A stretch of 64,000 nt of DNA from Dehalococcoidia bacterium (GCA_965204715.1 OZ242009.1:244893-308892); one strand, 5' to 3'. Positions 540 to 43,102 are shown, counted from the first letter of the stretch. Program-made: numbers and translations. Notes: a model not told the origin generated them from the sequence alone.

Positions 540-1577
540 ATGGGCCTGAAAGTCCTGGGCATTGAAACATCCTGCGACGAGACTGCCGTTGGAGTGGTTG
601 AAGACGGACGCCGCCTGCGGACGAACATCATCGCTTCCCAGGTAGACCTCCACTCCATCTACGGGGGAATCGTCCCGGAGGTGGCGTCGCGCCAGCACGT
701 CCGGGACATGGTCCCGGTGGTGGAAAAAGCGGTTTCGGACGCCGGCCTGGAACTGGAGGACATCGACGCCATCGGCGTAACCTACGGCCCCGGCCTGGGC
801 GGGGCGTTGATAACCGGGCTGAACACGGCCAAGGCCCTCGCCTTCGCCCTGGACCGGCCGTTGATCGGCGTCAACCACCTGGAGGGACACATCTATGCCT
901 CGTGGCTGACGTCCCATGTACCGGACGAGGACCCCGGTTTCCCCCTTGCGTGCCTGATCGCCTCCGGCGGCCACACCGACCTGGCGCTGATGGAAGGCCA
1001 CGGGAACTACAAGCTGTTGGGCCGGACCCGGGATGACGCCGCGGGTGAGGCTTTCGACAAGGCGGCCCGCATCCTCGGACTGGGCTTCCCCGGCGGCCCG
1101 GAGATTCAGCGGGTGTCGGCAGGGGCGACAGGGCAGGAGCGTCTCCCCAGGGCCTGGATGCGGGGCACGCTGGATTTCAGTTTCAGCGGCGTCAAGACCG
1201 CGCTGCTGCACCTGGCCCAGGCCAAGGGCATGTACCCCGAAGTCGCTGCGGAGCTGGACGAAGGCGAACTTGCGGGCCTTATCAGGGAGATGGCGGCGGC
1301 TTTCCAGGAGTCGCTGGTTGACGTGATGAGCGCCAAGCTGTTCGAGGCCGCCGAAAGCTACGGGGCCAAGGGACTGGTGCTTGGCGGTGGAGTTGCGGCC
1401 AACGCGCTTTTGCGGCAGGAAGTATCCGGGCGGTCTCCGCTGCCGGTGATCATCCCGCCGCCCATCCTGTGCACGGACAACGGGGCGATGATCGCCGCCT
1501 GCGCCTACTTCCAGTACATCCGCGGCGACCAGTTCGGCCTGGAATTGGACATCGACCCCAGCCTCACCCTGGGTTGA
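540..1577 (+). CDS. tsaD: tRNA N6-adenosine threonylcarbamoyltransferase TsaD (Kae1/Gcp family)
   Basis: ORF 300..1577. The homologous part starts at ATG 540 (MGLKVLGIETSCDETAVGVVEDG...). Family hallmarks GIETSCDET, GPGLGGAL and NHLEGH are present. Confidence 0.9.
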   Translation: MGLKVLGIETSCDETAVGVVEDGRRLRTNIIASQVDLHSIYGGIVPEVASRQHVRDMVPVVEKAVSDAGLELEDIDAIGVTYGPGLGGALITGLNTAKALAFALDRPLIGVNHLEGHIYASWLTSHVPDEDPGFPLACLIASGGHTDLALMEGHGNYKLLGRTRDDAAGEAFDKAARILGLGFPGGPEIQRVSAGATGQERLPRAWMRGTLDFSFSGVKTALLHLAQAKGMYPEVAAELDEGELAGLIREMAAAFQESLVDVMSAKLFEAAESYGAKGLVLGGGVAANALLRQEVSGRSPLPVIIPPPILCTDNGAMIAACAYFQYIRGDQFGLELDIDPSLTLG

Positions 1578-1685: not shown

Positions 1686-2360
1686 TTAACCTGCCCGTCC
1701 CCGCGCCTGAAAGACCGCGTCCAGCAGTTCGTAGACGTGCTCCCTGGCCTTACGGCTCCGGCATGGGAACGAGAATGACCACGTGCCTCCCTGGAACGAT
1801 ATGGAACCTCCCTGGCCGGTGAAGTAGTGCTTCCACATTAGCCAGGCGGCCACGACCACCGCAAGCAGGACCGCGACGGCTCCCGCGTCCATGCGGATGA
1901 TGGGCATGACCGGTCCTTCAAAACTGCCGGTCAACTGGTAGGCCAACACCAAGTACACAGCCAGCGCGCCCAGGACCAGCAACAGCCCCTGGAAGAGAGA
2001 CCCCGTGCCCCTGGACTCCCTTCTGTACACCACGCCCTGCAGGGATTCCAGGGTGGCAAGATAGGTCTCATCGCTCCTGTCGTCCTGGGCGAACGCCAGG
2101 ACGCGGTGGGTGGTGGTTACAAGCAGGTAGCCCCGCTCCGATGGTTCATCGACGAAACCGAGGGACGGGGTAAACAGGTGTGTCACCCGCTCCCCCGGCA
2201 GCAGGGACACATTGCGGACCCGGGTGAGGTAGCTATCGCGCGTAGGAACCCCGTTCACCACTCCTTCTCCGCGCAATATAGTAACACACCCCACCAAACC
2301 GCGGTGGGTTTCCCCGGAACCGGGCGCCCGTATGCTGGAAGCTCGCGACTGCCTCCGCAT
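1686..2360 (-). CDS. hypothetical membrane protein (N-terminal PH-like region, two central TM helices)
   Basis: 224-aa ORF with two hydrophobic helices (LFQGLLLVLGALAVYLVLAY and AGAVAVLLAVVVAAWLMW). No family recognised and the start codon is uncertain. Confidence 0.45.
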   Translation of the reverse strand: MRRQSRASSIRAPGSGETHRGLVGCVTILRGEGVVNGVPTRDSYLTRVRNVSLLPGERVTHLFTPSLGFVDEPSERGYLLVTTTHRVLAFAQDDRSDETYLATLESLQGVVYRRESRGTGSLFQGLLLVLGALAVYLVLAYQLTGSFEGPVMPIIRMDAGAVAVLLAVVVAAWLMWKHYFTGQGGSISFQGGTWSFSFPCRSRKAREHVYELLDAVFQARGRAG

Positions 2361-2806: not shown

Positions 2807-3973
2807 ATGACGGTCCAGAGAGCCGCTACAACCCAAGACGAACTGCTCAGCGAGTGGCACAAGAAAGCGTGGCTCAAGCGATTGTTCCTGCCTGGGGATT
2901 TCCTGGAGCAGGTCAGCATGGACGGGGCAGAAAACATGGTATGTCATAAGACCACTATGGAATATCTGTCTATGATCGACCAGGTAGAGACAAAGACCGT
3001 CAAAGTTTCTGAATCCCGCAAGCACTCAACCGACGTGGATTACCGCCCGCAGGAATTCAAGGACGAGATCCTCAAAATCATTACCAACGCTGCGAAAGTC
3101 AAATGCGACAGTTGCTCCGGGAGAGGGAGGAGTACCTGCGGGAAGTGTTCCGGAGATGGGAAAGTCACCTGTGGCAAGTGTTCCGGGAGAGGCGAAGTCA
3201 ACTGCGATACCACAAAGAATTGCGGATCCTGCGGGGGAAGCGGCAAACGCCGGGAGAATTGCGGGTCCTGCGGCGGCAGAGGCAAACATGAGAGGAAATG
3301 CGGGACTTGCGGCGGCGGCGGCGTTACTGGCCGCGGCGGCAGCGGCGCCGGGCCGTGCTACTCTTGCGGCGGGAGCGGCAAACATAGCAAGGATTGCGGC
3401 AGTTGCAGCGGGGGTAAAGTCACCAGGAATTGCGGCCGTTGCAGAGGAGGCAAAGTGACTTGCGACCGGTGCGGCGGGAGGGGCAGCGTTGGTTGTAACC
3501 GCTGCAACAGGAGCGGCATTCTGACCTGCAACCGGTGCAACGGGAGCGGCAGCGTGGTCTGCGGCACATGCGATGGGGCAGGCGAGCTGGTGAAGGGGGA
3601 TATCATCACCAGGAAATTTTCATGCTCAACGGACCTGACGTACCGGTTATCCGGGCTGGCCGCCAATGAGTTCAAGAACGGGCTGGCGGCCAAACACTTC
3701 GAGTCCGTAACCGGGGACCTGGTGCAAGAGGAATTACAGACCCCCGCCAGCAACGATATTGTGTTACAGCGGCAGACTGTCCACTCCTATGACGTGCTTT
3801 CGCACGGCTACTCCTACAACGGTGCGGAGTTCCGGTTAAACCGGATAACCACCGGCAACGGCTTGAAGTACGTCGCCTTGGGTATGCCCTTTTCCAAGAC
3901 CAGGACTGCCATAGCTGGCGCTGTATTCTTTGTTGCTGCGGCGGCAGTCTCAGCCCTATTGATATTTCTCTAA
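2807..3973 (+). CDS. tail-anchored protein with an array of 13 CxxC (DnaJ cysteine-rich-domain-like CxxCxGxG) zinc-finger motifs
   Basis: GGAGGA lies 6 nt before ATG 2807. Residues ~100-265 contain CDSC, CGKC x2, CGSC x3, CGTC x2, CYSC, CGRC, CDRC and CNRC x2, mostly followed by xGxG. The C-terminus is the hydrophobic AIAGAVFFVAAAAVSALLIFL. Confidence 0.75.
   Translation: MTVQRAATTQDELLSEWHKKAWLKRLFLPGDFLEQVSMDGAENMVCHKTTMEYLSMIDQVETKTVKVSESRKHSTDVDYRPQEFKDEILKIITNAAKVKCDSCSGRGRSTCGKCSGDGKVTCGKCSGRGEVNCDTTKNCGSCGGSGKRRENCGSCGGRGKHERKCGTCGGGGVTGRGGSGAGPCYSCGGSGKHSKDCGSCSGGKVTRNCGRCRGGKVTCDRCGGRGSVGCNRCNRSGILTCNRCNGSGSVVCGTCDGAGELVKGDIITRKFSCSTDLTYRLSGLAANEFKNGLAAKHFESVTGDLVQEELQTPASNDIVLQRQTVHSYDVLSHGYSYNGAEFRLNRITTGNGLKYVALGMPFSKTRTAIAGAVFFVAAAAVSALLIFL
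3218..3334 (+). repeat. three tandem 39-nt coding repeats inside the zinc-finger array
   Basis: Units begin at 3218, 3257 and 3296 (aattgcggatcctgcgggggaagcggcaaacgccgggag / aattgcgggtcctgcggcggcagaggcaaacatgagagg / aaatgcgggacttgcggcggc...). They encode NCGSCGGSGKRRE, NCGSCGGRGKHER and KCGTCGGGG. Confidence 0.7.
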
Positions 3974-4010
3974 GCGGCGTCCGGCGCTTTGGCGAAATGA
4001 GGCCTAAAGG

Positions 4011-4041
4011 TTGACATTAAGATTGTGAAACACCCTATGAT
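4011..4041 (+). promoter_or_regulatory. promoter candidate in front of the vWA/PP2C/kinase gene string
   Basis: TTGACA (4011-4016), 19-nt spacer (long), TATGAT (4036-4041). Lies about 90 nt upstream of ATG 4130. Confidence 0.35.
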
Positions 4042-4129
4042 ATGAACGCCTCAGCGCCTGAATGCTCTTGATGAGTCCTTCAGGCCCAATCCATCTGGAC
4101 TATCGAAATCTGAAAGGAGCGAAACAGCC

Positions 4130-4996
4130 ATGCCATATACTGCCGACATCAGCCGGGCCAACCCCGCCTGCTTCCTTTTCCTGATCGACCAGTCGGGATC
4201 GATGGAACAGGCATTGTCCGGCCAGCCCGGTTTTCGCAAGATGGACCAGGCGGCAATCGCGCTCAACGGCATCCTCAACGCCCTGTCACTGCGCTGCTCC
4301 CAGGGCATGGAGGTGCGAGACTACTTCCACATCGGCGTAATCGGCTACAATACCGACAGCTCCGGAAATCCAACGGTGCGAAGCGCCCTCCAGGGCACGT
4401 CCCCCGATTCGCCCTTCCTCCTGGTCAGCCAGGTGGTTGACCTCGCAGAAGTCGAAGACCGGCAGGTCAAGGAACCCGACGGCGCGGGCGGCCTGGTGGA
4501 AGTCACCCGGAAAGTGCCCGTCTGGTTCCACCCCCACGCCCAGTACGGCACCCCCATGTGCGAGGCTTTGGGGGATGCCGCCGCAGCCTTGCGGACCTGG
4601 ACCGGCGAATATCCCGACTCCTTCCCGCCCATAGTGATCAACATCTCCGACGGCATGGCCACCGACGGAGACCCGCAGGCCCCGGCAGACGAGATAATGG
4701 GGCTCGGCACCTCCGACGGCAACACCCTGCTCTTCAACATCCACCTTTCCGAAACGGCGGCAGTGCCCATCCAGTACCCCGACAGTGAGGATGGCCTGCC
4801 CGACGAGCACTCCAGGACGCTGTTCCGCATGTCCTCGGTGCTGCCTGAGTCCAGCCGGAGCATGGCCGTCACCCTGGACCTGTCGGTGAACGAGAACTCC
4901 CGCGGCTTCGTCTTCAACGCCAACATGGAGTCGCTGGTGCAATTCCTGGACATCGGCACCCGAGGGCCTTCCAACGCGCCTTCCGATCTGCACTGA
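4130..4996 (+). CDS. TerY-like von Willebrand factor A (vWA) domain protein, paralog 1
   Basis: N-terminus MPYTADISRANPACFLFLIDQSGSM carries the MIDAS DxSxS motif. The downstream MIDAS Thr (YGTPMCEAL) and Asp (NISDGMATDGD) are also present. No signal peptide. Confidence 0.8.
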   Translation: MPYTADISRANPACFLFLIDQSGSMEQALSGQPGFRKMDQAAIALNGILNALSLRCSQGMEVRDYFHIGVIGYNTDSSGNPTVRSALQGTSPDSPFLLVSQVVDLAEVEDRQVKEPDGAGGLVEVTRKVPVWFHPHAQYGTPMCEALGDAAAALRTWTGEYPDSFPPIVINISDGMATDGDPQAPADEIMGLGTSDGNTLLFNIHLSETAAVPIQYPDSEDGLPDEHSRTLFRMSSVLPESSRSMAVTLDLSVNENSRGFVFNANMESLVQFLDIGTRGPSNAPSDLH

Positions 4997-5055
4997 CAGC
5001 CAGGGGCAGGGGCGCCCTGCCAGCCACCAGCCACCGGAGAGGAGGAGAGCCGGAC

Positions 5056-6003
5056 ATGCCATACACCGCCGACATCAGCCGGGCCAATCCCAGTTGCTTC
5101 ATGTTCCTGGTTGACCAGTCCTACTCCATGGAGGGAGCGCTGGCAGGCCAGCCGGGGCAGCACAAAATGAACGCTGCCGCCGACACGATAAACCGAGTCC
5201 TGGAGAGTCTCACCCTGCGCTGTTCCCAGGGGATGGACGTTCGTGACTACTTCGACATCGGTATCCTGGGCTACGGCTGTGAACAGAAGGCGGAATACGA
5301 CCCGAATCAAGTCTACGGTTACCTGGATGCAAACGAGGTGTATCACGAAATACCACATGCCCAGTTGGACAAAGACAACCTCGTCGAATGCGTAGTAATC
5401 AGCGCCCTTCCTGGGACCACCCTGGAACAGCCCTTCCTGCCCATCAGCAGGGTGGTGGAAGTGGCCGAAATGGTGGACCGGCAGGTGAGAGAGAGCGACG
5501 GCAGAGGAGGAACAACCGAAGTAACCCGCAAGATGCCCGTCTGGTTACGGCCTCATGCCGGGGCGCAAACCCCGATGTGCGAAGCTCTGGCCCACGCCGG
5601 ACAGGCCATCGAACGATGGATCTCCCGGCACCCCGACTCCTTCCCCCCTGCCGTTATCAACATCAGCGACGGCGAGGCCAACGACGGCGACCCTGAGCCT
5701 GTGGCCCAGCAGATCATGGGCCTGCAAACGTCCGATGGCAACGTACTGATGTACAACTGCCACCTGTCCGAGTTGGCGGCAATGCCCATCCAATACCCCG
5801 ACCGGGAGGACGGCCTGCCCGACCAGTTCGCCCGGAGCCTGTTCCGCATGTCGTCGGTACTGCCCGATTCCATCCGGGGACTGGCGGCAACCCTGGCCCT
5901 GCCGGTCAGGGACAACTCCCGCGGCTTCGTCTTCAACGCCGACATGACTGCCCTGGTGCAATTCCTCGACATCGGCACCCGCGGCCCTTCCAACCTGCAT
6001 TAG
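5056..6003 (+). CDS. TerY-like vWA domain protein, paralog 2 (with ~30-aa insertion)
   Basis: MPYTADISRANPSCFMFLVDQSYSM (DxSxS), AQTPMCEAL and NISDGEANDGD. Collinear with paralog 1 except for an extra segment, EQKAEYDPNQVYGYLDANEVYHEIPHAQLDKDNLVECVV. Confidence 0.8.
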   Translation: MPYTADISRANPSCFMFLVDQSYSMEGALAGQPGQHKMNAAADTINRVLESLTLRCSQGMDVRDYFDIGILGYGCEQKAEYDPNQVYGYLDANEVYHEIPHAQLDKDNLVECVVISALPGTTLEQPFLPISRVVEVAEMVDRQVRESDGRGGTTEVTRKMPVWLRPHAGAQTPMCEALAHAGQAIERWISRHPDSFPPAVINISDGEANDGDPEPVAQQIMGLQTSDGNVLMYNCHLSELAAMPIQYPDREDGLPDQFARSLFRMSSVLPDSIRGLAATLALPVRDNSRGFVFNADMTALVQFLDIGTRGPSNLH

Positions 6004-6078
6004 GGACGCGGGTCCTCTGCACGGCGGAGGGCCGGAGCAGCCGTGGAGGATCCACGTTTCAGAAATTGAGAGGCATCT

Positions 6079-6852
6079 ATGGAACTGCGAGGTCTCAGAA
6101 CACTCTGGATGGCCAAAGCCGGCAATCGCCCGGAAGAATGTGAAGACTCCTACGCCTTCGACCCTCTGGCCTGCCGCGTGGGTTCAATGGGCGTTAATAC
6201 CGCCAGGATCGCGGTTTCCGATGGGGCCAGCGAGTCGGCCTTTGCCCGGAGCTGGTCGCAGGTCCTGAGCCAATCATTTATCGACAGGCCCCTGGACCTG
6301 TCAGGCATCGGCCAGGACGCCCTGGAAAGCTGGCTCGCTCCAGGCCAGCAGGCATGGGACGCAACAGTGCCCTGGGACCGCATCCCCTGGCACGGGGAGG
6401 CCAAGGCGCGGGCCGGAGCGCTGGCGACACTGCTCGGTCTGACCATCTCCCCGGCGGGCGCGGGGGCCCTGTCCTGGCAAGCAGTTGCCATAGGCGACTG
6501 CTGCCTCTTCATAGTCCGCGACGGCAAGTTGCTCCGGTCCTTCCCCCTCGACGATGCCGCCCAGTTCAACAACACCCCGGTCCTGATTTGCAGCAACCCG
6601 GCCAATAACCGGGGCCTTGGCGGTCACGTCCGGCAGGAACGGGGGGACTGCGCCCCCGGAGACCTGTTCCTCCTGGCCTCCGACGCCCTGGCCTGCTGGA
6701 TGCTGGAGGACCACGCCCAGGGCGGCAGCCCCTGGGACACCCTGCTGGCCTTGGACTCCCACCAGGCTTGGGAAGAATGGGTCAACACCCAGAGGCAAGA
6801 ACGCATAATGAAGAACGACGACACCACGCTGGTTGTTGTAGAGGTGGAGTAA
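6079..6852 (+). CDS. PP2C-family Ser/Thr protein phosphatase
   Basis: Acidic metal-binding motifs appear in PP2C order: PEECEDSY, AVSDGASES, ASDAL and a C-terminal KNDDTTLVVVEV. Its position between the vWA and kinase genes matches TerY-P triads. Confidence 0.7.
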   Translation: MELRGLRTLWMAKAGNRPEECEDSYAFDPLACRVGSMGVNTARIAVSDGASESAFARSWSQVLSQSFIDRPLDLSGIGQDALESWLAPGQQAWDATVPWDRIPWHGEAKARAGALATLLGLTISPAGAGALSWQAVAIGDCCLFIVRDGKLLRSFPLDDAAQFNNTPVLICSNPANNRGLGGHVRQERGDCAPGDLFLLASDALACWMLEDHAQGGSPWDTLLALDSHQAWEEWVNTQRQERIMKNDDTTLVVVEVE

Positions 6853-6873
6853 CAGAAAAAGTGAGGTGAGCTT

Positions 6874-8274
6874 ATGGCCTGGCCGCCGCCTGTTGACTTC
6901 AGGGACGCCGTCCAGAACCCCCAGAATTGCTTCGAGGTCCAGGATCTGGCCCAGGGGGCCACTGCGGTCACCCGCATGGGCACCCCGGTAGTCTGGTCGG
7001 GCAACTTCGCCTGCGTGTTCAAGGTGGCCACCCCCGGCGGCGACGTGGCCGTGCGCTGCTTCACCCGGGAGGTCAGGGACCAGCAGCAGCGCTACGGCCA
7101 TTTGAGCGAATACCTCGCCGGAGTCAGGCCGGGGTTCCTCGTGGGCTTTGAGTACGTGGAGCGGGGGATCAGGGTCAAGGGCGACTGGTATCCCATAGTC
7201 AGGATGGAGTGGGCCGAGGGAGACCGGCTGGACAAGTTCATCGAGGGACATCTAAACAGGCCGGACGTCATCATGGGTCTGGCCGCCAGTTGGCGCGGCG
7301 TAAACGGCGGGCTCCGGGGCCTTGAAATCGCCCACAACGACCTTCAGCACGGCAACGTCATGGTCCAGGAGCAGGGCGGCCTCCACCTCGTCGACTACGA
7401 CGGCATATACCTGCCCCGGTTCGAGGGAGAGCCCAGCCCCGAGATCGGCCACCGGCACTACCAGCACCCCAGGAGGACAGACCGGGACTACCATGCGGAG
7501 ATCGACAACTTCCCTTCCCTGGTCGTCTACCTGACCCTGATGGCCCTGGGCGTAGACCCCCAACTCTGGGACAGGTTCTACAACCAGGAAAACATGCTCT
7601 TCACCAGGGATGACTTCGCCGACCCCGCCAACTCCGATTGCTTCAAAGCCTTGAAGTCCAGCCCCGACGCCTACGTCGCCGAGCTGACCGGCATACTCGA
7701 AGGGTTCTGCTCCCAACCTGTGGAACAGGTGCCCCGGCTGGAGAACGTCCTGCGCGGCGTTACGGCCTCTCCGCCAACAGCGTCCACGTCCGCACCGGCA
7801 CCCGCGCCTGCTCCCGCTCCGGCGCCACCCGCACCCGCGCCCGGCGCTCCCACGGCTCCTCCATCATCAGCGCCTGCACCTCCACCTGCGCCACCTATCC
7901 CGCCGTCGTCATGGCCCGCGCCTGCACCGCCACCTCCGCCAGCGCCAGCGCCGCCTGTGCCCCCGTCGTCACGGCCCGCGCCACAACCGCCGCCCGTTCC
8001 CGGCGCTCCGGCGCCGCCCCCGCTTCCGCGGCCACGGGTCCCGTCAGCTTCGTCGCCAGGTCCGGGGGGACTCTTCGAAATGGCGAGAGAGTCCAACAAG
8101 CCGATATTTATCCTGGCTGGTCTCTGGCTCTTCTGCGCCATGCTGGGATCGTTTCTGCCCTTCTTCGGGGGGTTCGGCCTCATAGTCTTACTGGCGCTGA
8201 TTTGCGCCATCTGCTACAGAATACGGCCGGTACGTGAATGGATTGGCGACCGTTTAAGCAATCTCAGGAGATGA
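6874..8274 (+). CDS. Ser/Thr protein kinase-like protein 1: kinase domain + Pro-rich linker + C-terminal TM hairpin
   Basis: Catalytic loop [13 protein letters not shown] and DFG-equivalent [10 protein letters not shown]. The beta3 position reads VAVRCF (Arg, not Lys). About 90 aa of the linker are PA/PP-rich. The C-terminus PIFILAGLWLFCAMLGSFLPFFGGFGLIVLLALICAICYRIR forms two TM helices. Confidence 0.75.
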   Translation: MAWPPPVDFRDAVQNPQNCFEVQDLAQGATAVTRMGTPVVWSGNFACVFKVATPGGDVAVRCFTREVRDQQQRYGHLSEYLAGVRPGFLVGFEYVERGIRVKGDWYPIVRMEWAEGDRLDKFIEGHLNRPDVIMGLAASWRGVNGGLRGLEIAHNDLQHGNVMVQEQGGLHLVDYDGIYLPRFEGEPSPEIGHRHYQHPRRTDRDYHAEIDNFPSLVVYLTLMALGVDPQLWDRFYNQENMLFTRDDFADPANSDCFKALKSSPDAYVAELTGILEGFCSQPVEQVPRLENVLRGVTASPPTASTSAPAPAPAPAPAPPAPAPGAPTAPPSSAPAPPPAPPIPPSSWPAPAPPPPPAPAPPVPPSSRPAPQPPPVPGAPAPPPLPRPRVPSASSPGPGGLFEMARESNKPIFILAGLWLFCAMLGSFLPFFGGFGLIVLLALICAICYRIRPVREWIGDRLSNLRR

Positions 8275-8366
8275 CCAGCCCCGCGAACGGCGTCGAGTCA
8301 GACCGGCCATCGGGAACGCGGTCCCCCGGCGAGGGGGATGGCGTTCCGGAGAAAGCGAGGTGAGCC

Positions 8367-9689
8367 ATGGCACAGCCAACCAGGTCTCCAGCGCCCGCAT
8401 CAGCGCCTGCGTCGAGTAGTGGAGAAGACCTCGGCAACCAGTTCCTCCTGAGCGGCAAGTTCATAGCTGCCCTGTTTGTGACCGCCCTCATACTCGCTGC
8501 GCTATCTTTCTTCGCCGACCTATTCGGGCCGATTTCCCTCATAGTCCTTGCGTTGGCGATTTGCGCTCTCTGTTACAGGTTGAGACTCGCCATGAGGTTC
8601 CTGATATGCGCCCTGGTGCTGGCCGGTATAAGCCTTTACGTGGCCAGACCCATGCTGTCGGAGACCTTCTACGATGTGGGTTTGAAAGTCCTGAGTTCCT
8701 ACGGCGACCCCGGTGAGAGAGCAATCTGGCCCGACCCGGCCAGGAGGGACCTGCCGGACACGGTCGTCACAGAAGTCCCATACGGCGACGGCTTGCAGGG
8801 CTTCGACACCACCACCGCGGAAGGCAGGGTTGGGGCGATCTCGGGCCTGAAGTATGAAACGGGCGCAAGATACCTGGGGTACGCCGCTGCCGCACTACTG
8901 TTTACCGGGCTGGTCATTGCCTGCCTCGGCACAGCCTTGAGGCTGCTGGGAGTTACCAGGGAGCCGGCAGCGGCACCGGCATCCACGTCCAGCGCGTCGG
9001 GACTGTTCAGCAAGATTGGTCGAGACGTCAGGGTGGGGCTGGCCATGGTGGCCATCGGGTGGGTATTGTTCCTGGTCGGCGGGCTTCCGCAAGATATCTT
9101 CAATGGGTCACTCCCAGGGGGCGTGGACTATCTCAGAGGGGAGGGCATAAATTCGGAAGCCGCGCATCTATTCTGGCCAATGATGATACTCGATAAAGTC
9201 CAGTATATGGGTGGCGCACTCATTTGGATGGGGATTGCCTTCTCCTTCTTCCCATTGGTTAGAAGAGCATGGAGATGGGCCTGTTCAAAACATGACCACT
9301 ATTACAGAAAACTGGGATTTGCATTGGTGGCGTTCGGGACCCCAGTAAGTGTTTTCTCTCTGAATGTTCTGCCGGCGTTGATCATCCCAACGGTCCGGGA
9401 AACCGCGGCCCCGCCCGGCGATTTCATGTTTCTTTCCAGCTTCACCTACTACCCAGAGTGGCTCAGGACAAGTATGTCAATCATGGACATTCTGGGGCCG
9501 GCATGCATAATCGCCGGGATTCTCTTTATCCTGTTCGGAGAAAACACTCTGCCCTGGATTTGTAAACTTATAGCAAAATACTTTAGCTCCTGGTTCGCCT
9601 CGCCCGGTCGTCCGTCAAGTTCTGGTTCCCCCAGCAGCAGCGAAAGAGACAGCGGGCCGCCTACCCTATTTGACGGCAGGCCACGCTGA
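8367..9689 (+). CDS. polytopic membrane protein of unknown family, paralog P1 (~8 TM, Ser-rich C-terminal tail)
   Basis: 440 aa with a Pro/Ser-rich N-terminus and about 8 hydrophobic helices. Conserved blocks shared with P2 include ETFYDVGLKVLSSYGDP, LFWPMMILDKVQYMGGALIWMG, IPTVRE and WLRTSMSI. The tail is PGRPSSSGSPSSSERDSG. Confidence 0.6.
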   Translation: MAQPTRSPAPASAPASSSGEDLGNQFLLSGKFIAALFVTALILAALSFFADLFGPISLIVLALAICALCYRLRLAMRFLICALVLAGISLYVARPMLSETFYDVGLKVLSSYGDPGERAIWPDPARRDLPDTVVTEVPYGDGLQGFDTTTAEGRVGAISGLKYETGARYLGYAAAALLFTGLVIACLGTALRLLGVTREPAAAPASTSSASGLFSKIGRDVRVGLAMVAIGWVLFLVGGLPQDIFNGSLPGGVDYLRGEGINSEAAHLFWPMMILDKVQYMGGALIWMGIAFSFFPLVRRAWRWACSKHDHYYRKLGFALVAFGTPVSVFSLNVLPALIIPTVRETAAPPGDFMFLSSFTYYPEWLRTSMSIMDILGPACIIAGILFILFGENTLPWICKLIAKYFSSWFASPGRPSSSGSPSSSERDSGPPTLFDGRPR

Positions 9690-9714
9690 TCATAGGCGTT
9701 CTCGGAGGTAAGCT

Positions 9715-10947
9715 ATGGACCAGCCAACTAACCCGCCGACCCCCGCACCGACGCCTTCACCCGCATCACCACCTGAGACCGAGTCCGTTACGTTTTGGCC
9801 TCGCGGACTAATCTGTATCGGGGTCGGGATCATACTTATGATATTGGCCCCGATTGTGCAGGCGATCACGGGAAGTCTAGTCCTCCTATTCGTTAGCCTG
9901 ATAATCTTCGCCGTGGGATACTGCGTTGTCTCTTTCGATTTTAGACTGGTCCCCAGGCTGTTGGTGTTGGCCGTTATGGGAATTGCAATCATCTCTTTTC
10001 TGTCCACATTATTCCTGGGGGAAGTCTTCTATGATGCGGTGCTTAAAGTCCTGAATTCCTATACCGACCCGGTGCAAAGGGAGTTTTTGCCAGACCCAGA
10101 GCAAGCAGAGGCGGCGAAAGACATGCCCTTTGGTGTCGAGTCCAAATCTGAAATGGGTTCTCAACTCCTGGAGTTCACCGGGTACATATCCTTTGCGCTC
10201 GGAGTCATCGTTACTTGTCTTGGCGCATTGCTCAAATTTGCAGGCAAGTTTCGCGGGGTAATCGGAGTTGGACTGTCAATGATAATTATTGGCCTGTTCC
10301 TGCTTCTCACCCCCGCGCTTCCGCAGTACATCCTGGATGAGGTTCTCAGAGAAGGCACAGGTTATTCGAATGGGGCAATCAGCCCTAACTCCCCGGTCCC
10401 GTGGTTGTTCTGGCCGCTTTTCGCCCTTGACAAGGCATCGTACGTAGGCGGCGTAATCATGTGGCTTGGGGTATTCATCCTCATATTGGGCCTGATCGAC
10501 CGTCTGATCAACAGAAGGGGAGAGGATGCCGAGGTCAAGAGGCTGGGCCTGGCGTTATTCGCAATTGGAACACTCGGAGGCATCTTCCATTTTTATGTTC
10601 TGGAGGATTTCCTTATTCCAACTGCCCGGGAAATCGGAATTGCCGCGATACCGGGATGGCTCAGAACATCCATAAGCATCCTGGGCTACACGTGGTGGAT
10701 ACCCACATTGCTTGGGACCATATTCTTCATCGCAGGAATCAGGACCATGCGCAAGATTGGCTCTGCCGCAGAAAAAACCCTGGGCGCCATACATGACCAT
10801 ATTCCCGAACCATCTCCATCAAGCGGCGCGTCTTCCGAGAGTAGCAGCAGCAACGAGTCACCAGTCCCTGGAGGCGCCATCCAGGAAGCCAACAGAGCCG
10901 CACGTCGAGGCAACAGGGGCAGACGTGGCGGCGGTAGAGGCAGATAA
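9715..10947 (+). CDS. polytopic membrane protein of unknown family, paralog P2 (Ser-rich then Arg/Gly-rich tail)
   Basis: 410 aa. Blocks shared with P1 include EVFYDAVLKVLNSYTDP, LFWPLFALDKASYVGGVIMWLG, IPTARE and WLRTSISI. The tail is PSPSSGASSESSSSNESP...RRGNRGRRGGGRGR. Confidence 0.6.
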   Translation: MDQPTNPPTPAPTPSPASPPETESVTFWPRGLICIGVGIILMILAPIVQAITGSLVLLFVSLIIFAVGYCVVSFDFRLVPRLLVLAVMGIAIISFLSTLFLGEVFYDAVLKVLNSYTDPVQREFLPDPEQAEAAKDMPFGVESKSEMGSQLLEFTGYISFALGVIVTCLGALLKFAGKFRGVIGVGLSMIIIGLFLLLTPALPQYILDEVLREGTGYSNGAISPNSPVPWLFWPLFALDKASYVGGVIMWLGVFILILGLIDRLINRRGEDAEVKRLGLALFAIGTLGGIFHFYVLEDFLIPTAREIGIAAIPGWLRTSISILGYTWWIPTLLGTIFFIAGIRTMRKIGSAAEKTLGAIHDHIPEPSPSSGASSESSSSNESPVPGGAIQEANRAARRGNRGRRGGGRGR

Positions 10948-11082
10948 CCACATGACACAGTCGAGACCGACCCCGGCTCCTGTGCTGTGGACCCAGGAAC
11001 TTGCAATCAGCAGCCATAAGGCTACTCTAAGCGTTGTGGCATTCCAGCAGCACACGGGAGTCCCAGACCCAGGAGGTTGAAC

Positions 11083-12396
11083 ATGGCCTGGCCCGCGCCC
11101 ACTGATTTCAGGGATGCCGTCCAGAACCCCGAGAACTGCTTCGAGGTCCAGGACCTCGCCCAGGGAACGGCTTCGGTTACGCGCATGGGAACGCCGATGG
11201 TCTTCTCGGGCAACTTCGCCTGCGTGTTCAGGCTGGAAACCCCTGGCGGCAACGTGGCCGTGCGCTGCTTCACCCGGGAGGTGAAGGACCAGCAGGAACG
11301 CTACGGCCACCTCAGCTCCTACCTCGCCGGAGTCAGACCCGAGTTCCTCGTGGGTTTCGAGTACGTTGAACGGGGCATAAAGGTCAAGGGCGACTGGTAT
11401 CCCATCGTCAGGATGGACTGGGCCGAGGGGGACCGGCTGGACAAGTTCATTGGAGACCATCTGGACAGGCCGGACATCTTCATGGACCTGGCCGCCAGGT
11501 GGCGGGGCGTGAACGGCACCCTGCGAGGGCTGGGAATCGCCCACAACGACCTGCAGCACGGGAACGTTATGGTCCAGGAGCAGGGCGCGCTCCGCCTGGT
11601 CGACTACGACGGCATCTACCTGCCCCGGTTCGAGGGGGAACCCAGCCCCGAGATCGGCCACCGGCACTACCAGCACCCGAAGCGGACTTCCCAGAACTAC
11701 TATGAGGGCATAGACAACTTCCCCTCCCTGGTGGTCTACCTGACCTTCCTGGCGCTGCGGGCTGACCCTCAACTATGGGACAGGTTCTACAACCAGGAAA
11801 ACATGCTCTTTACCAGGGAAGACTTTGCCAACCCCGCCAACTCGGACTGCTTCAAGGCACTGAAGAGCAGCCCCGATGCCAACGTTGCCGAATTGACCGC
11901 CGTGCTAGAGGGACTCTGCTTTCAGCCCGTGGACCAGGTCCCTACCCTGGAAGAGGCTCTTCGCGGCGTCACCGTTGCCCCGTCAAGCGCGCCAGCCCCT
12001 CCGTCCCCGTCGAATGCGCCTGCTCCGCCCGCGCCGGCTCCCGCACCTGCCCCTCTGCCGTCCGCGCCCGCGCCGTCGGCGGGGTCTTCGTACCGGGACC
12101 TGCTCCAGTCCGGCCAGGCTGCCGCACCCGCATCACCCCCACCCGCGCCTCCATCATCAGCGCCCGCTCCGCCGCCGACGCCCACGCCGCCGCCTGCTCC
12201 CGCGGGCCCGGTGCTGGTTTGCCCCGGCTGCAACCGGACGAGCTCCACGGAGCATATATACTGCGGCTACGAAGACTGCGCCGCCGTGCTCCTTCCAGGG
12301 AGAAAGACCTGCAACGGCTGCAATTCCTCGATTCCGCTCAACGCCTACTTCTGCCCCGACTGCGGTGTCAATCTGGCGGCACCCGCCTCTATATGA
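11083..12396 (+). CDS. Ser/Thr protein kinase-like protein 2: kinase domain + Pro-rich linker + C-terminal double zinc ribbon
   Basis: AGGAGG lies 6 nt before ATG 11083. About 83% identical to kinase 1 over ~299 aa by manual alignment, with the same [13 protein letters not shown] and VAVRCF. The C-terminus is CPGCN...C..EDC...CNGCN...CPDCG. Confidence 0.75.
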
Positions 12397-13484
12397 AGTG
12401 CCCAACCTGCCAGTCCGTAGTACCAAGCACGGTCAGGTTCTGCGCTTATTGCGGGGCCGGGATTCTGGCGGCTCCGCCGTCTCCCGCTGCCCGACGGTCT
12501 GGGTTGTTCGGTTTCCTCTGGGCGCACAAGGCGCTGAGTTTCTTCTTCGGTCTCGGGTCCTTGCTGCTGATTGTGGCGCTGTTCTACGCGATGAATACGG
12601 GAGATGAGGAACCGGCAATGGCCTTGGCGCTGCCGCCCCCGACTGCCACCGCCGAGCCTGCCCCTGAGCCGGCAATTATACCTACGGAGACACCGGTCCC
12701 GACGGTTGGGCCGACAGAGGCTCCCGTGCCGGCAGTTGTGCCAACGGATACTCCGGCGCCGACAGCCACGCCCATTCCTACGCCCGAGCCGACGGAGACA
12801 CCGGTCCCGACAGTAACCCCAACCCCGAGTCCGACACCCATCCCAGCCGCGACTCCGACGCCTACGCCGGTCCCAACGGCGACGCTGATTCCGACAAATA
12901 CGCCGAGGCCGACGGCGACACCAGTCCCGACGGATACGCCTCAGCCAACGCCAACACTTCGTCCAACAGCCACCCCGACGCCCACGCCGCGTCCAACGCC
13001 CACACAGGTCCCGTGGAAGGACCACACCGGTAAGGGCGATAAGTGGGGCTACACAGTGGAAATCCCTGGAAACTGGAGGTCTGCGCGGGGCGGAAAGCAA
13101 GCAGAGTTGCGCTCTTCTGATGGCCGGGCTACCCTTACAATTAGCGTCAAGGACTATCCCGAAAAACTACCGCCGCAGCAGTTCGCCGAGGAGCACCGGG
13201 CCTCGCTGATCGCCAAATATGCCTATGATGCAAATTTTTTCAACATCCTGGGCTTCCGGGGAGTCCCGCTGGACGGCCACCAGTGGTTCCGGTTGTCGTG
13301 GCGCTTGCAGCAGAAGTCCGACTCATGTGTGCTGGACATCACCGACCTGGTCTCCCGTTCCCGGAACTTCCCCGGCTGGGACCAGGGGTATATCCTGAGC
13401 TTCCGGGTGTGCGATGAACATCTTCCCGCACATCTGAAGGACCGCAAGCGGATCCTGGACAGTTTCCGGGAACTCGCTCCATGA
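12393..13484 (+). CDS. zinc-ribbon / single-TM / Pro-Thr-rich linker / C-terminal globular-domain protein
   Basis: ATG 12393 overlaps the kinase-2 stop (ATGA). Sequence [21 protein letters not shown], then TM helix [21 protein letters not shown], then ~120 aa of PT-rich linker, then ~150 aa of non-repetitive C-terminus. The upstream part of track ORF 11775..13484 is a shadow frame. Confidence 0.65.
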
Positions 13485-13564: not shown

Positions 13565-13690
13565 TCGCAATAGCAAAGGCTGTGATGGAGACGAGTAGGC
13601 AGGGGTAGGCGGTTAGCGAGCCTGGTACGGTGAAAGCAGGCGCGCCGAGCTTGTCCGAAAATCCCTCCGGAGCCGCCAGCCGAACCCCCG

Positions 13691-13715
13691 GTCAGTCGGC
13701 TACGGACTACAATAC
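13691..13715 (+). repeat. copy D of the 25-nt repeat (gtcagtcggctacggactacaatac), embedded in the T-box leader
   Basis: Matches the three copies at 59604, 59702 and 59806 at about 21-22 of 25 positions. It is flanked by complementary ccccgg/ccgggg, so it would sit in a hairpin loop. Confidence 0.6.
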
Positions 13716-13841
13716 ACGCCGGGGTATGTAAGCCGGGCCGGGCTCGCCGCCCGTTACCAACGGCGGGGCATGTTGGTGTCCTTATCGAGAGGTCTCCGCC
13801 CACGCGGGGGCAATTAGGGTGGTAACGCGGGAACTCGTTGA

Positions 13842-13871
13842 GTCTCGTCCCTAGAGGGGCGGGGCTTTTTT
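13842..13871 (+). terminator. intrinsic terminator of the T-box leader
   Basis: gtctcgtccc / taga / ggggcggggc gives a 10 bp stem (3 G-U pairs), followed by tttttt. Confidence 0.75.
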
Positions 13872-13950: not shown

Positions 13951-15648
13951 ATGGTGAAACTCAAAGGCGCTGATATCATGTGCGAAGCTCTGCTCCGGGA
14001 AGGGGTTGACGTGGTTTTCGGCTACCCCGGCGGAGCAATCCTGCCCTTCTATGACGCCCTGTGGGGCCACCCGCAGCTCCGGCACATCCTGGTCCGGCAC
14101 GAGCAGGCCGCGGCCCACGCCGCCGACGGCTACGCCCGGGTAACCGGCAAGGCAGGCGTCTGCCTGGCGACCTCCGGGCCTGGGGCCACCAACCTGGTCA
14201 CCGGCATCATGGGGGCCAAGGCCGATTCCGTGCCGATGGTGGCCATCACCGGGCAGGTGGCCCGCACTGCATTGGGGTCGGAGGCGTTCCAGGAATGCGA
14301 CACCTGCTCCATCACCGCCCCATGCACCAAGAAGACCTACATGGTCATGTCGGCCCGGGACCTGGCTCCTACTATCCGGGAGGCATTCCAGGTCGCCCAG
14401 GAGGGAAGACCCGGCCCGGTGCTCATCGACGTGCCCCGTGACGTACAGTTGGAGGAGGCCGAGCTCGAGTTTTCCGACATGGACCGGGGCCGCAACGCTC
14501 CCCTGTCCAGGGAAACATTGCAGCACGTCTCCGAAGCGGCCAGGTTGATTAACGATGCCGAGCGTCCGGTCATCATCAGCGGGCACGGCATCCTCGCCTC
14601 GGGGGCCCACGAGGAACTGCGGGAACTGGCCGAGACCACAGGAATCCCGGTAATCACCACCCTGCTGGGACTGAGCGGGTTCCCCGGCAATCACCCCCTC
14701 AGCCTGGGGATGCTGGGGATGCACGGCATGTACTGGGCCAACCTGGCCGTGGACCAGGCCGACCTGGTCATCGGGTTGGCGATGCGCTTCGACGACCGGG
14801 TCACCGGCAGGACCTCGGGCTTCGCTCCCCACGCCCGGATCATTCACCTGGACATCGAGCCGACCCAGGTAGGCCGCAACGTTCCGGTGGAGGTCCCGCT
14901 GGTGGGGGACGCCAAGAAGGTGCTGTCGGCCCTGACGCCGCTGGTGAAGTACAAAGAACGCTCTGAGTGGATGGGCTACATCGACACCCTGCGCCGGGAG
15001 CACCCGTCTCTGGCCATCCCCAACGGCCACAGGTTGCAGGTGCAGCACGTTCTGCGAGACATGAACGGACTGCTGGAGGAAGACGACCGCACGGTGGTGG
15101 TCACCGGGGTAGGGCAGCACCAGATGTGGGCCGCCCAGTTCCTGTCCTTCAACCGCTCCAATACCTTCGTCTCGTCGGGCGGGCTGGGGGCAATGGGATT
15201 CGAGCTTCCCGCGGCGATGGGAGTGCAGGCAGGCAAGCCGGATATTCCGGTCTGGAGCATCGCTGGCGACGGGGGATTCCAGATGGTCTCCCAGGAGTTG
15301 GCCACGGTCGCCGAAGAGAATCTGCCGGTGAAGATCGCCCTGTTCAACAACGGCTACCTGGGAATGGTGCGCCAGTGGCAGGAGATGTTCTTCGAGAAGC
15401 ACTTGAAGGCAGTCCCGATCTCCGGCCCCGATTATGTCAAGCTGTCAGAGGCGTATGGAGTCCCGGCGCTCCGGGTCAGCGACCGGGAGGAGGTGATGCC
15501 GGCCCTGCGGCAGGCCCAGGCCCACGACGGCCCCTTCCTGATTGAGTTCATCGTGGACCCGGACGCCAACGTGTACCCGATGGTCCCGCCAGGCGGTTCC
15601 CTGGCCGACACTATCGAAGACCCGCTGGTGACCAACGGGTCCGGGTAA
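13951..15648 (+). CDS. ilvB: acetolactate synthase (acetohydroxyacid synthase) large subunit, TPP-dependent
   Basis: GGAGG precedes ATG 13951. MVKLKGADIMCEALLREGVDVVFGYPGGAILPFYDAL...HEQAAAHAADGYARVTGK...GDGGFQM. The T-box leader supports a biosynthetic role. No ilvN-like gene follows. Confidence 0.85.
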   Translation: MVKLKGADIMCEALLREGVDVVFGYPGGAILPFYDALWGHPQLRHILVRHEQAAAHAADGYARVTGKAGVCLATSGPGATNLVTGIMGAKADSVPMVAITGQVARTALGSEAFQECDTCSITAPCTKKTYMVMSARDLAPTIREAFQVAQEGRPGPVLIDVPRDVQLEEAELEFSDMDRGRNAPLSRETLQHVSEAARLINDAERPVIISGHGILASGAHEELRELAETTGIPVITTLLGLSGFPGNHPLSLGMLGMHGMYWANLAVDQADLVIGLAMRFDDRVTGRTSGFAPHARIIHLDIEPTQVGRNVPVEVPLVGDAKKVLSALTPLVKYKERSEWMGYIDTLRREHPSLAIPNGHRLQVQHVLRDMNGLLEEDDRTVVVTGVGQHQMWAAQFLSFNRSNTFVSSGGLGAMGFELPAAMGVQAGKPDIPVWSIAGDGGFQMVSQELATVAEENLPVKIALFNNGYLGMVRQWQEMFFEKHLKAVPISGPDYVKLSEAYGVPALRVSDREEVMPALRQAQAHDGPFLIEFIVDPDANVYPMVPPGGSLADTIEDPLVTNGSG

Positions 15649-42260: not shown

Positions 42261-42385
42261 TAAGCCCACGGGCAACCGGATCAGTATGGAAATCTACACC
42301 ACCATCAGTCCACGACAATGGCGGGACTTGTTCGTAATGGGATACTGTGTATCGTAATGGGATACCGTGTATAGGAGGTTGGAAG

Positions 42386-43102
42386 ATGATAAAGCCTCTG
42401 GCGATTGCGGTGGTTCTTCTGCTGGTGGTTGCTTGCGGCAGCGCGGCTACGCCCACACCGGAGCCAACGGCGATGGCCATACCAACGCCCACATCTGGAC
42501 CGGAGCCGACGGCGACGGCCGAGCCTGCTCCTTCACCCACGCCCACAATGAAACCGACGGCGACGAAACCAACGGCGACCTCGACTCCTGTTGCCACTCC
42601 TGCGCCGCCGACGGAACATGCTGAGCGGCTCCCAAGCAAATTCGACTCTCGCCTCGACGCTATCCGGGAAAAGATGGAGTCAGTCGAGCCGGTATGGACG
42701 GTCTATTTTCATAGCGAGGACTGGCAGACCCCTGGGAAAAACACCCTGATGAACGACTTGTTCGAACTGCTGAAGCTGGAAAACATCGCCACCCACGAGG
42801 GATACCAGCGAATCAGCCCGGAAATGATCACTGACCGGGAACCTGACATCATCATCGCGGACTCGATAGAAAGCGTCGTGGAAAACCCCGATTTGTCCGG
42901 CCTGCATATGGTGCAGGACGCGGCACATATCCCGGACCACATCTTCGTACTGAGCGAGGGATACTCTTTCGGCATGGACAATCATCATTTCATGGACGCC
43001 GTGGAGGAATTTGCCGCTTTTGTCTACCCAGAGGTTTTCGCTCAGGAAGAAAAGGCGGATGGGGGGCATGGCCATGAAAAAGGAGGGAAACACTCGCATT
43101 AG
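42386..43102 (+). CDS. lipoprotein with Pro/Thr-rich linker and periplasmic-binding-protein-like C-terminal region, His-rich tail
   Basis: AGGAGG precedes ATG 42386. Signal peptide and lipobox MIKPLAIAVVLLLVVACGS. PT-rich ~70 aa. Tail GGHGHEKGGKHSH. Confidence 0.6.
   Translation: MIKPLAIAVVLLLVVACGSAATPTPEPTAMAIPTPTSGPEPTATAEPAPSPTPTMKPTATKPTATSTPVATPAPPTEHAERLPSKFDSRLDAIREKMESVEPVWTVYFHSEDWQTPGKNTLMNDLFELLKLENIATHEGYQRISPEMITDREPDIIIADSIESVVENPDLSGLHMVQDAAHIPDHIFVLSEGYSFGMDNHHFMDAVEEFAAFVYPEVFAQEEKADGGHGHEKGGKHSH

Follow-up and report, generated by a model that had tools for sequence, protein, structure and literature searches.

A TerY-P-type kinase locus of Dehalococcoidia with a conserved zinc-ribbon membrane partner and a rare, mosaic family of membrane proteins

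On the + strand of a 64,000-nucleotide (nt) stretch of DNA from a Dehalococcoidia bacterium (GCA_965204715.1 OZ242009.1:244893-308892), called the window here and used for all coordinates, a run of eight genes (4130-13484) combines TerY-like vWA proteins, a PP2C phosphatase, and two Ser/Thr kinases with three membrane-protein genes: the paralogs P1 and P2, which lie between the two kinases, and ZnTM, which follows the second. We read this island as a TerY-P-type Ser/Thr phosphorylation switch in which two receptor-like kinase arms would share one PP2C and the vWA proteins, a reading to which the sequence evidence gives, in our judgment, about an even chance. It builds on features that are established, namely the domain identities, the gene order, the conservation of the first arm, the existence of kinase-P1 fusions, and the mosaic and variable makeup of the P1 cassette. 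From these we infer physical contacts, a direction of signaling, and a physiological role, for which phage or envelope-stress sensing is considered most likely. The core itself is ordinary; the interest lies in the conserved ZnTM partner and in the rare, mosaic, kinase-linked P1 family. As candidate inputs to TerY-P, the Dehalococcoidia locus supplies a conserved kinase partner exposed at the surface and a second kinase tied to an undescribed family with eight transmembrane (TM) helices and outward-facing motifs.

An ordinary TerY-P core with two kinases

The combination of vWA, PP2C, and kinase genes is reportedly a conserved neighborhood, said to have been recognized as the TerY-P triad by Anantharaman et al. 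in 2012. Judged by profile, the core of the island is an ordinary set of this kind in which the vWA and kinase genes are duplicated, much as a preliminary description of the window had it; the PADLOC profile matches range from 5e-35 to 7e-84 (Table 1). TerY2 is a paralog of TerY1 (59% identity), the DxSxS motif of the metal ion-dependent adhesion site (MIDAS) is intact in both, and both cover the PADLOC TerY profile nearly whole; TerY1 is 92 to 98% identical across the syntenic loci. The PP2C gene scores 24.0 bits against Pfam PP2C_2, exactly at the cut-off, and its sequence has no significant match in the PDB. The co-directional order of vWA, PP2C, and kinase is found here and in at least 20 loci from Chloroflexota, Armatimonadota, Thermoplasmata, and Bacteroidota. 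In the proposed switch, PP2C would reset the system, and the TerY vWA proteins would serve as its phospho-regulated output or as a scaffold.

The kinase domains of kinases 1 and 2 are 83% identical over the first 300 nt, and the two proteins part ways at their C-termini, again in keeping with the preliminary description. The OB-fold part of the STK_OB profile (positions 301-562) is covered by neither; its place is taken by a TM hairpin in kinase 1 and by a probable double zinc ribbon in kinase 2, the latter a twice-repeated CxxC...CxxC arrangement that matches DZR at 4e-4 with 20.8 bits, below the curated cut-off of 27.3. In alignment with MEK1, the catalytic loop, HNDLQHGN, falls on HRD..N and the DYD motif on DFG; both kinases keep the catalytic-loop Asp and Asn, and D-Y-D replaces DFG. 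Kinase activity is assumed by analogy with E. coli YegI, which is active despite missing several canonical residues and having DSD for DFG (bioRxiv 10.1101/819920). According to the same source, YegI is a two-pass inner-membrane kinase of the TerY-P type with both ends in the cytoplasm and without an extracytoplasmic sensor domain. Set beside the E. coli YegI/PphC (YegK)/YegL set, kinase 1 has the two-pass layout of YegI, with DYD, and it is likened to YegI by layout and not by sequence relatedness; it differs in that its hairpin, placed at the extreme C-terminus, is similar to helices 1 and 2 of the neighboring P1 proteins.

The island can be placed against two further TerY-P settings. With the TerY-P defense system of PADLOC it shares the same three families in the same order, co-directional and tightly spaced; it departs from that system in having kinases without the OB-fold, duplicated vWA and kinase genes, and three added membrane-protein genes. 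The OB-fold form guards E. coli against T7-like phages, as far as the summary of Gao et al. 2020 given in PMC7699616 goes, and the island is likened to it by genes and profiles only. With the TerY-P genes of Type II/III-A CoCoNuT systems it shares duplicated TerY-like vWA genes and, in kinase 2, a probable fusion of kinase and zinc ribbon (ZnR), both arrangements being known from CoCoNuT-associated TerY-P (PMC11090510). However, the flanks of the island are without McrBC, CnuH, CnuE, or HEPN genes, its place is between tsaD and an ilvB-like gene, and its kinase-ZnR is followed by a conserved ZnR-TM-ectodomain gene. The preliminary description had called several of these features unexplained, and that judgment did not stand, given the precedents for kinase-ZnR fusions and duplicated TerY genes (PMC11090510) and for a two-pass kinase (bioRxiv 10.1101/819920).

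Table 1. Features of the island and of its surroundings, in window coordinates (GC3, G+C content at third codon positions)
Feature	Position	Strand	Evidence or remark
TerY1, TerY-like vWA protein, MIDAS motif DQSGS	4130-4996	+	PADLOC TerY 7e-84, full profile length
TerY2, TerY-like vWA protein, MIDAS motif DQSYS	5056-6003	+	PADLOC TerY 3e-81; Pfam VWA 1.5e-5
PP2C-type Ser/Thr phosphatase	6079-6852	+	PADLOC PP2C 5e-35, positions 10-239 of 242
Kinase 1: kinase domain (residues 1-300), Pro-rich linker, two-pass TM hairpin	6874-8274	+	STK_OB 1e-71, profile 1-299 of 562
TM hairpin of kinase 1, residues 409-454	8098-8235	+	Two TM segments
P1, 8-TM protein, halves from different family subtypes	8367-9689	+	No Pfam, NCBIfam, or PADLOC match; GC3 0.67
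P2, P1 paralog, Ser-rich, RGG-rich C-terminal tail	9715-10947	+	GC3 0.60
Kinase 2: kinase domain, Pro-rich linker, C-terminal double zinc ribbon	11083-12396	+	STK_OB 2e-72, profile 1-301 of 562
ZnTM: N-terminal zinc ribbon, one TM, Pro/Thr linker, C-domain of ~150 residues	12393-13484	+	4-nt overlap with kinase 2 stop
Tail-anchored CxxC protein, 13 CxxCxGxG DnaJ-type zinc-finger motifs	2807-3973	+	C-terminal TM, residues 366-388; GC3 0.71
Promoter-like consensus match, TTGACA-19 nt-TATGAT	4011-4041	+	Read directly from the sequence; not listed by the scanner
tRNA-Trp call (ARAGORN, 95 nt)	1267-1361	+	Within the tsaD reading frame (300-1577), upstream of the island
Protein of 224 residues, two TM segments	1686-2360	-	No Pfam match; between tsaD and the island
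T-box leader, full length	13573-13855	+	82.3 bits, E 2e-18; Rfam gathering score 93
Intrinsic terminator stem of the T-box leader	13840-13867	+	

ZnTM, a conserved fifth gene

The coupling of ZnTM to kinase 2, claimed at first for the window, is borne out elsewhere, since the gene order and the start/stop overlap recur in Dehalococcoidia with unrelated flanks. When the C-domain of ZnTM was used to scan the GTDB species genomes, six loci were returned, 6/6 of them in Dehalococcoidia, and in 6/6 ZnTM lies directly 3′ of TerY(-TerY)-PP2C-kinase(ZnR). Four new and more distant loci (L036-L039) have 41 to 51% identity, with kinase 2 orthologs preceding the ZnTM gene; between them nothing beyond TerY(x1-2)-PP2C-kinase(ZnR)-ZnTM is conserved, and the flanks sampled hold unrelated housekeeping genes. 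The start/stop overlap or abutment of the kinase and ZnTM genes is kept in the window, L001, L037, L038, and L039, the L001 gene being full-length on translation after the gene caller had shortened it. By this comparison of gene content, the ancestral unit in Dehalococcoidia is TerY(-TerY)-PP2C-kinase(ZnR)-ZnTM.

True ZnTM homologs share an MKCPxC...FCAYCG ribbon, one TM helix, a Pro/Thr (PT) linker, and the C-domain with two invariant Cys residues, and many database matches to the protein are driven by the linker. The N-terminal zinc ribbon matches Pfam below the curated cut-off, and the C-domain has no Pfam, NCBIfam, PADLOC, or significant PDB sequence match; it is also found behind leucine-rich repeat (LRR) or trypsin-like modules in other proteins. 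The same kind of arrangement with a different ectodomain partner is seen in a Chloroflexi TerY-P locus (L016), where kinase-ZnR is followed by a ZnR-WD40 protein, which suggests that the ribbon is the constant coupling element and that the rest of the kinase-ZnR partner is variable. The first arm of the proposed switch, ancestral in the class, would consist of kinase 2 with its double zinc ribbon and the translationally coupled ZnTM. In it, ZnTM would sense something at the cell surface through its extracytoplasmic, Cys-containing domain, and the signal would pass to kinase 2 via the two cytoplasmic zinc-ribbon modules.

Two side observations belong to this gene. P0100, a ZnTM-type protein with 70% identity in the C-domain, carries leucine-rich repeats between the TM helix and the C-domain, a layout that recalls an LRR-receptor ectodomain. 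Within the window, the reading frame at 42347-43102 (+ strand) matches the PT-linker and C-terminal part of ZnTM by tblastn (24.7% over 223 residues, E 1e-6); since the C-domain profile does not detect it, the match is probably linker-driven.

The P1 family and its link to kinases

P1 and P2 are paralogs of about 33% identity with some eight hydrophobic helices each, and the preliminary account of them as belonging to no recognized family was upheld, with no family found for either in Pfam, NCBIfam, or PADLOC. Among 5.8 billion proteins searched through a word index, six relatives came up, and an exhaustive profile search of 1.84 billion representatives gave 39 matches, 21 of them below 1e-30. 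An AlphaFold2 (AF2) model of P1 built from 24 sequences reached a predicted local distance difference test score (pLDDT) of 79 and a predicted TM-score of 0.67 (an earlier model from 7 sequences, at pLDDT 58.5, was too poor for use), and Foldseek found no match for the better model, the best E values being 0.55 in the PDB (TM-score at most 0.21) and 0.52 in BFVD. Exact look-up of P1 in the assembly index returned no record, and no relative came out of GTDB when it was scanned with the P0062-P0067 subgroup. As far as these sequence and model searches go, P1 and P2 are a very rare family that lies outside any described one.

The link between this family and kinases is carried by protein fusions, seen in several metagenomic proteins. 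P0071, P0072, P0073, and the fragment P0076 join kinase, Pro-rich linker, and P1 domain in one polypeptide, and P0061 keeps only an N-terminal remnant of the kinase before its P1 domain. The kinase domain of P0071 shares 50 to 56% identity with kinases 1 and 2; used as a query against GTDB, P0071 returned ordinary TerY-P kinases only, the fusion not being among the species genomes, and a scan of JGI metagenomes with the membrane domain of the fusion gave no relative. A second tie is seen in kinase 1, whose C-terminal hairpin matches positions 7-75 of the P1 profile, the first two helices, in every ortholog (E 3e-4 to 2e-3; BLASTP E 3e-7). From the fusions, taken together with P1-like genes that occur without the triad, it follows that the robust link is from the P1 domain to the kinase and not from P1 to the whole triad. 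The linkage of P1 and P2 to the switch, as first proposed, thus stands for the kinase and fails as a strict tie to vWA and PP2C, given the loci L006/L014, L007, L033, and L040. Elsewhere in the family, P0065 has an N-terminal DnaJ J-domain (PF00226, 2e-17) where other members carry a kinase, which hints at chaperone recruitment to the P1 membrane domain.

The fusions also bear on topology, since they put a cytoplasmic kinase before the first helix and therefore the N-terminus of P1 inside. The charges of the loops agree with a predicted 8-TM, N-in/C-in arrangement: the loop at residues 299-315 has 6 Lys and Arg against 1 Asp or Glu, and that at 99-168 has 12 Asp and Glu against 7 Lys and Arg. 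In this predicted topology, the conserved motifs of the family (TDPxERxFWPDP, LFWPMxxLDKV, IPTxRE, and YPGWL) lie in outward loops, and the cytoplasmic loop and tail are Ser/Thr-rich, the tail often ending in an RGG run. A sensor role is favored for P1 because the conserved motifs face outward and the fusions are receptor-kinase-like. The second arm of the proposed switch, a later insertion at the junction of PP2C and kinase 2, would be made up of the YegI-like kinase 1 and the one to three P1-family genes that follow it; P1 proteins would contact kinase 1 by way of the TM hairpin that both have, and would act as its exchangeable sensing module or possibly as its substrate. If the partners of both arms are sensors, the switch reads cell-surface signals, and its ligand and substrates could be sought by way of these partners.

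The same proteins can be cast in another role. In an abortive-infection version of TerY-P, the P1-family proteins would be effectors: on sensing of phage, the kinase would phosphorylate their Ser-rich loop or tail, and the membrane would be opened or disrupted, with PP2C holding the system off in uninfected cells. Multi-TM proteins are common as effectors in defense systems, and a three-gene TerY-P system is without an obvious effector. The Ser/Thr-rich segments predicted to be cytoplasmic would offer the kinase its target, and a variable, mosaic cassette suits a conflict system, as does the protection against T7-like phages ascribed to OB-fold TerY-P in the summary of Gao et al. 2020 (PMC7699616). 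We nevertheless consider this version unlikely. The conserved motifs of the family face outward, and not toward a pore or the cytoplasm; kinase, linker, and TM domain in one chain is how a receptor kinase is usually built, unlike a kinase-gated toxin; P1 genes stand alone with no kinase or phosphatase nearby to restrain them; and the AF2 model of P1 resembles no known channel or pore.

The P1 cassette is both mosaic and variable. Against the strain represented by L002/L013, most core proteins are 94 to 99% identical, kinase 2 is 87%, and P1 is only 58%. In the L013 alignment, where the flanks are 94 to 97% identical at the DNA level, homology runs over 3996-9104, breaks inside P1 at about residue 246, and resumes at 10895 in the tail of P2. 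By block identities, residues 1-200 of P1 match one subtype at 72 to 88%, and the C-terminal half, which has about 30% identity to it, is nearer a different subtype. P2 is absent from L002/L013 and from L001, and the number of P1-family copies at the locus ranges from 1 (L002) to 3 (L001), the count of three including a short form of 200 residues likened to family members by eye. GC3 is 0.60 to 0.67 in P1 and P2 against 0.78 to 0.87 in the core. In our interpretation, one subclade gained a second kinase and P1-family genes, inserted between PP2C and the original kinase.

Such a cassette might consist of unrelated passengers, a mobile membrane-protein unit inserted by chance beside a duplicated kinase with no functional tie to it. 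Other contexts hold P1-like genes without TerY-P, in one case next to a resolvase, P1 and P2 have low GC3, and every adjacency traces to one locus. Even so, chance insertion is in our estimate highly improbable, for P1 domains have been fused independently to the same kinase type, a P1-like TM hairpin is present in kinase 1 of all orthologs, and the cassette, though remodeled, has been retained throughout the subclade, its intergenic gaps being short (92 and 25 nt).

Several points weigh against the two-arm switch itself. Neither kinase has an evident canonical beta-3 lysine (VAVRCF). The similarity of the kinase 1 hairpin to P1 is short and lies in compositionally biased TM sequence, and a reduced GC3 is in part what Pro-rich and hydrophobic segments would be expected to show. 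The adjacencies of P1 and TerY-P genes all belong to one tsaD/ilvB-like slot in one subclade and, being orthologous, amount to a single evolutionary event. There are also free-standing P1-like genes: L006/L014, which has P1-family genes without TerY-P, comes from the same genome as the P1-less TerY-P operon L039, and in L007 such a gene lies beside the resolvase. Two kinase-P1 fusions (L033 and L040) have neither TerY nor PP2C in the surrounding DNA available. Finally, no defense-island signature was found in the flanks of the window or in those sampled for L036-L039.

Beyond the switch lies a wider proposal, which we offer tentatively and with more doubt than confidence: that the P1 family is a novel class of 8-TM sensor domain, exchangeable and recombining, that serves eukaryote-like Ser/Thr kinases and, together with ZnTM, would make TerY-P a two-channel surface sensor of phage attack or envelope damage, the mosaic cassette being a specificity determinant under diversifying selection. 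As a sensor, the family would add a new membrane domain to bacterial receptor-kinase modules. Practical limits are set by an uncultured host, a tiny family, and functional steps that are all inferred. The stand-alone fusions have neighbors of their own, the one at L033 1-7530 lying beside large ankyrin-repeat proteins and the one at L040 3787-8664 beside an LRR protein of 1,625 residues.

Setting of the island and neighboring genes

Nine open reading frames were confirmed on the + strand, the eight-gene run and, further upstream, the CxxC gene. The spacing given in the preliminary description was reproduced throughout: gaps of 59, 75, 21, 92, 25, and 135 nt from 4130 onward, a 4-nt overlap (ATGA, 12393/12396) between kinase 2 and ZnTM, and 156 nt between the end of the CxxC gene and the start of TerY1. 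The gap of 135 nt presumes ATG 11083 as the start of kinase 2; TTG 11077 is also open. The sequence described as the one promoter-like site of the island is present and is a consensus match only, so that the claim of a single promoter rests on one such match. Its 19-nt spacer falls outside the 16 to 18 nt range of the promoter scanner, and promoter-like sites across the region, 5 against 3.4 expected, show no excess.

On the 5′ side, the island adjoins tsaD and the gene for the 224-residue two-TM protein, which is conserved at 72 to 97% in every syntenic locus; on the 3′ side lie genes for a thiamine pyrophosphate (TPP) enzyme (ilvB-like), fumarase, and a GMC oxidoreductase. The T-box leader belongs to the ilvB-like TPP enzyme gene at 13951 and sets the 3′ limit of the island; it scores below the Rfam gathering score and was overlooked by the default Rfam scan. 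Three more genome lineages (L004, L002/L013, and L001/L005/L012) carry the island in the same slot between tsaD and the ilvB-like gene, and relatives of the locus, close and more distant, come only from assemblies of uncultured Dehalococcoidia (Chloroflexota). In one strain, a HicA/HicB toxin-antitoxin pair is inserted beside the fumarase gene (L002 18387-19276); the window lacks it. That the island is mobile, with repeats or a tRNA at its borders, was considered and rejected, in agreement with what had first been described: no repeats were found bounding the island, and the sole tRNA call, within tsaD, is probably spurious. A defense-island context was likewise rejected, the flanks here and in L036-L039 being metabolic and housekeeping genes.

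These flanks bring in the remaining alternative, that of envelope or stress signaling as ordinary housekeeping with no role in conflict. The locus would then hold a lineage-specific receptor Ser/Thr kinase like PknB/PrkC with a PP2C and vWA scaffolds, and the variation of P1 would reflect relaxed constraint. The likeness is one of layout: PknB/PrkC with PstP/PrpC pair a kinase-linker-TM-outward module with a cognate PP2C, and both the kinase-P1 fusions and kinase 2 with ZnTM resemble this. The island differs in that its putative sensor modules are neither PASTA nor any other described domain, that vWA proteins belong to the set, that one arm would consist of two polypeptides joined via zinc ribbons, and that the other uses an 8-TM domain. 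The locus is inherited vertically and always has tsaD on one side and the ilvB-like gene, under T-box control, on the other, which fits a housekeeping function, as do the flanks of the window and of L036-L039, with defense or mobile genes only further out; nor is the role of E. coli YegI/PphC established (bioRxiv 10.1101/819920). We regard a pure housekeeping role as rather unlikely, however, because all core proteins match defense-system profiles strongly, because recombination mosaics and changes of copy number between strains 94 to 97% identical are unusual for housekeeping sensors, and because P1-type and CxxC-type genes elsewhere adjoin resolvase or transposases. For the switch as we propose it, the variability of the cassette leans toward a role in conflict, and the housekeeping flanks lean the opposite way.

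The CxxC gene upstream is judged from its distribution to be a neighbor with DnaJ-type zinc-finger repeats and not a component of the system. The 13 CxxC motifs and the tail anchor of the preliminary description are present, whereas the partner role given to the protein there was rejected. It has about 40 full-length homologs, many with a precomputed PF00684 assignment; the protein itself falls below reporting in Pfam, has no NCBIfam or PADLOC family, and matches the DnaJ cysteine-rich domain in the PDB at E 0.87, which is not significant. No TerY-P genes were found near five CxxC homologs in four other loci; in one case the homolog and the TerY-P island share a genome but are 1.8 Mb apart, and two of the loci are beside transposase-type genes. 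A tie between this DnaJ-type protein and the J-domain-P1 fusion P0065 was also considered and rejected, there being no P1-profile match near any CxxC homolog. In the near-identical strain L013 (94 to 97% identity), the body of the CxxC gene (2937-3995) is absent and a 5′ remnant is left. There, L013 4970-5142 (the same in L002) repeats the initial 173 nt of the TerY1 region at 96.5% identity, and after it L013 5274-5617 holds the 5′ end of the deleted CxxC gene with the sequence upstream of it; the two segments are the scar of a local rearrangement where the island begins on its 5′ side.

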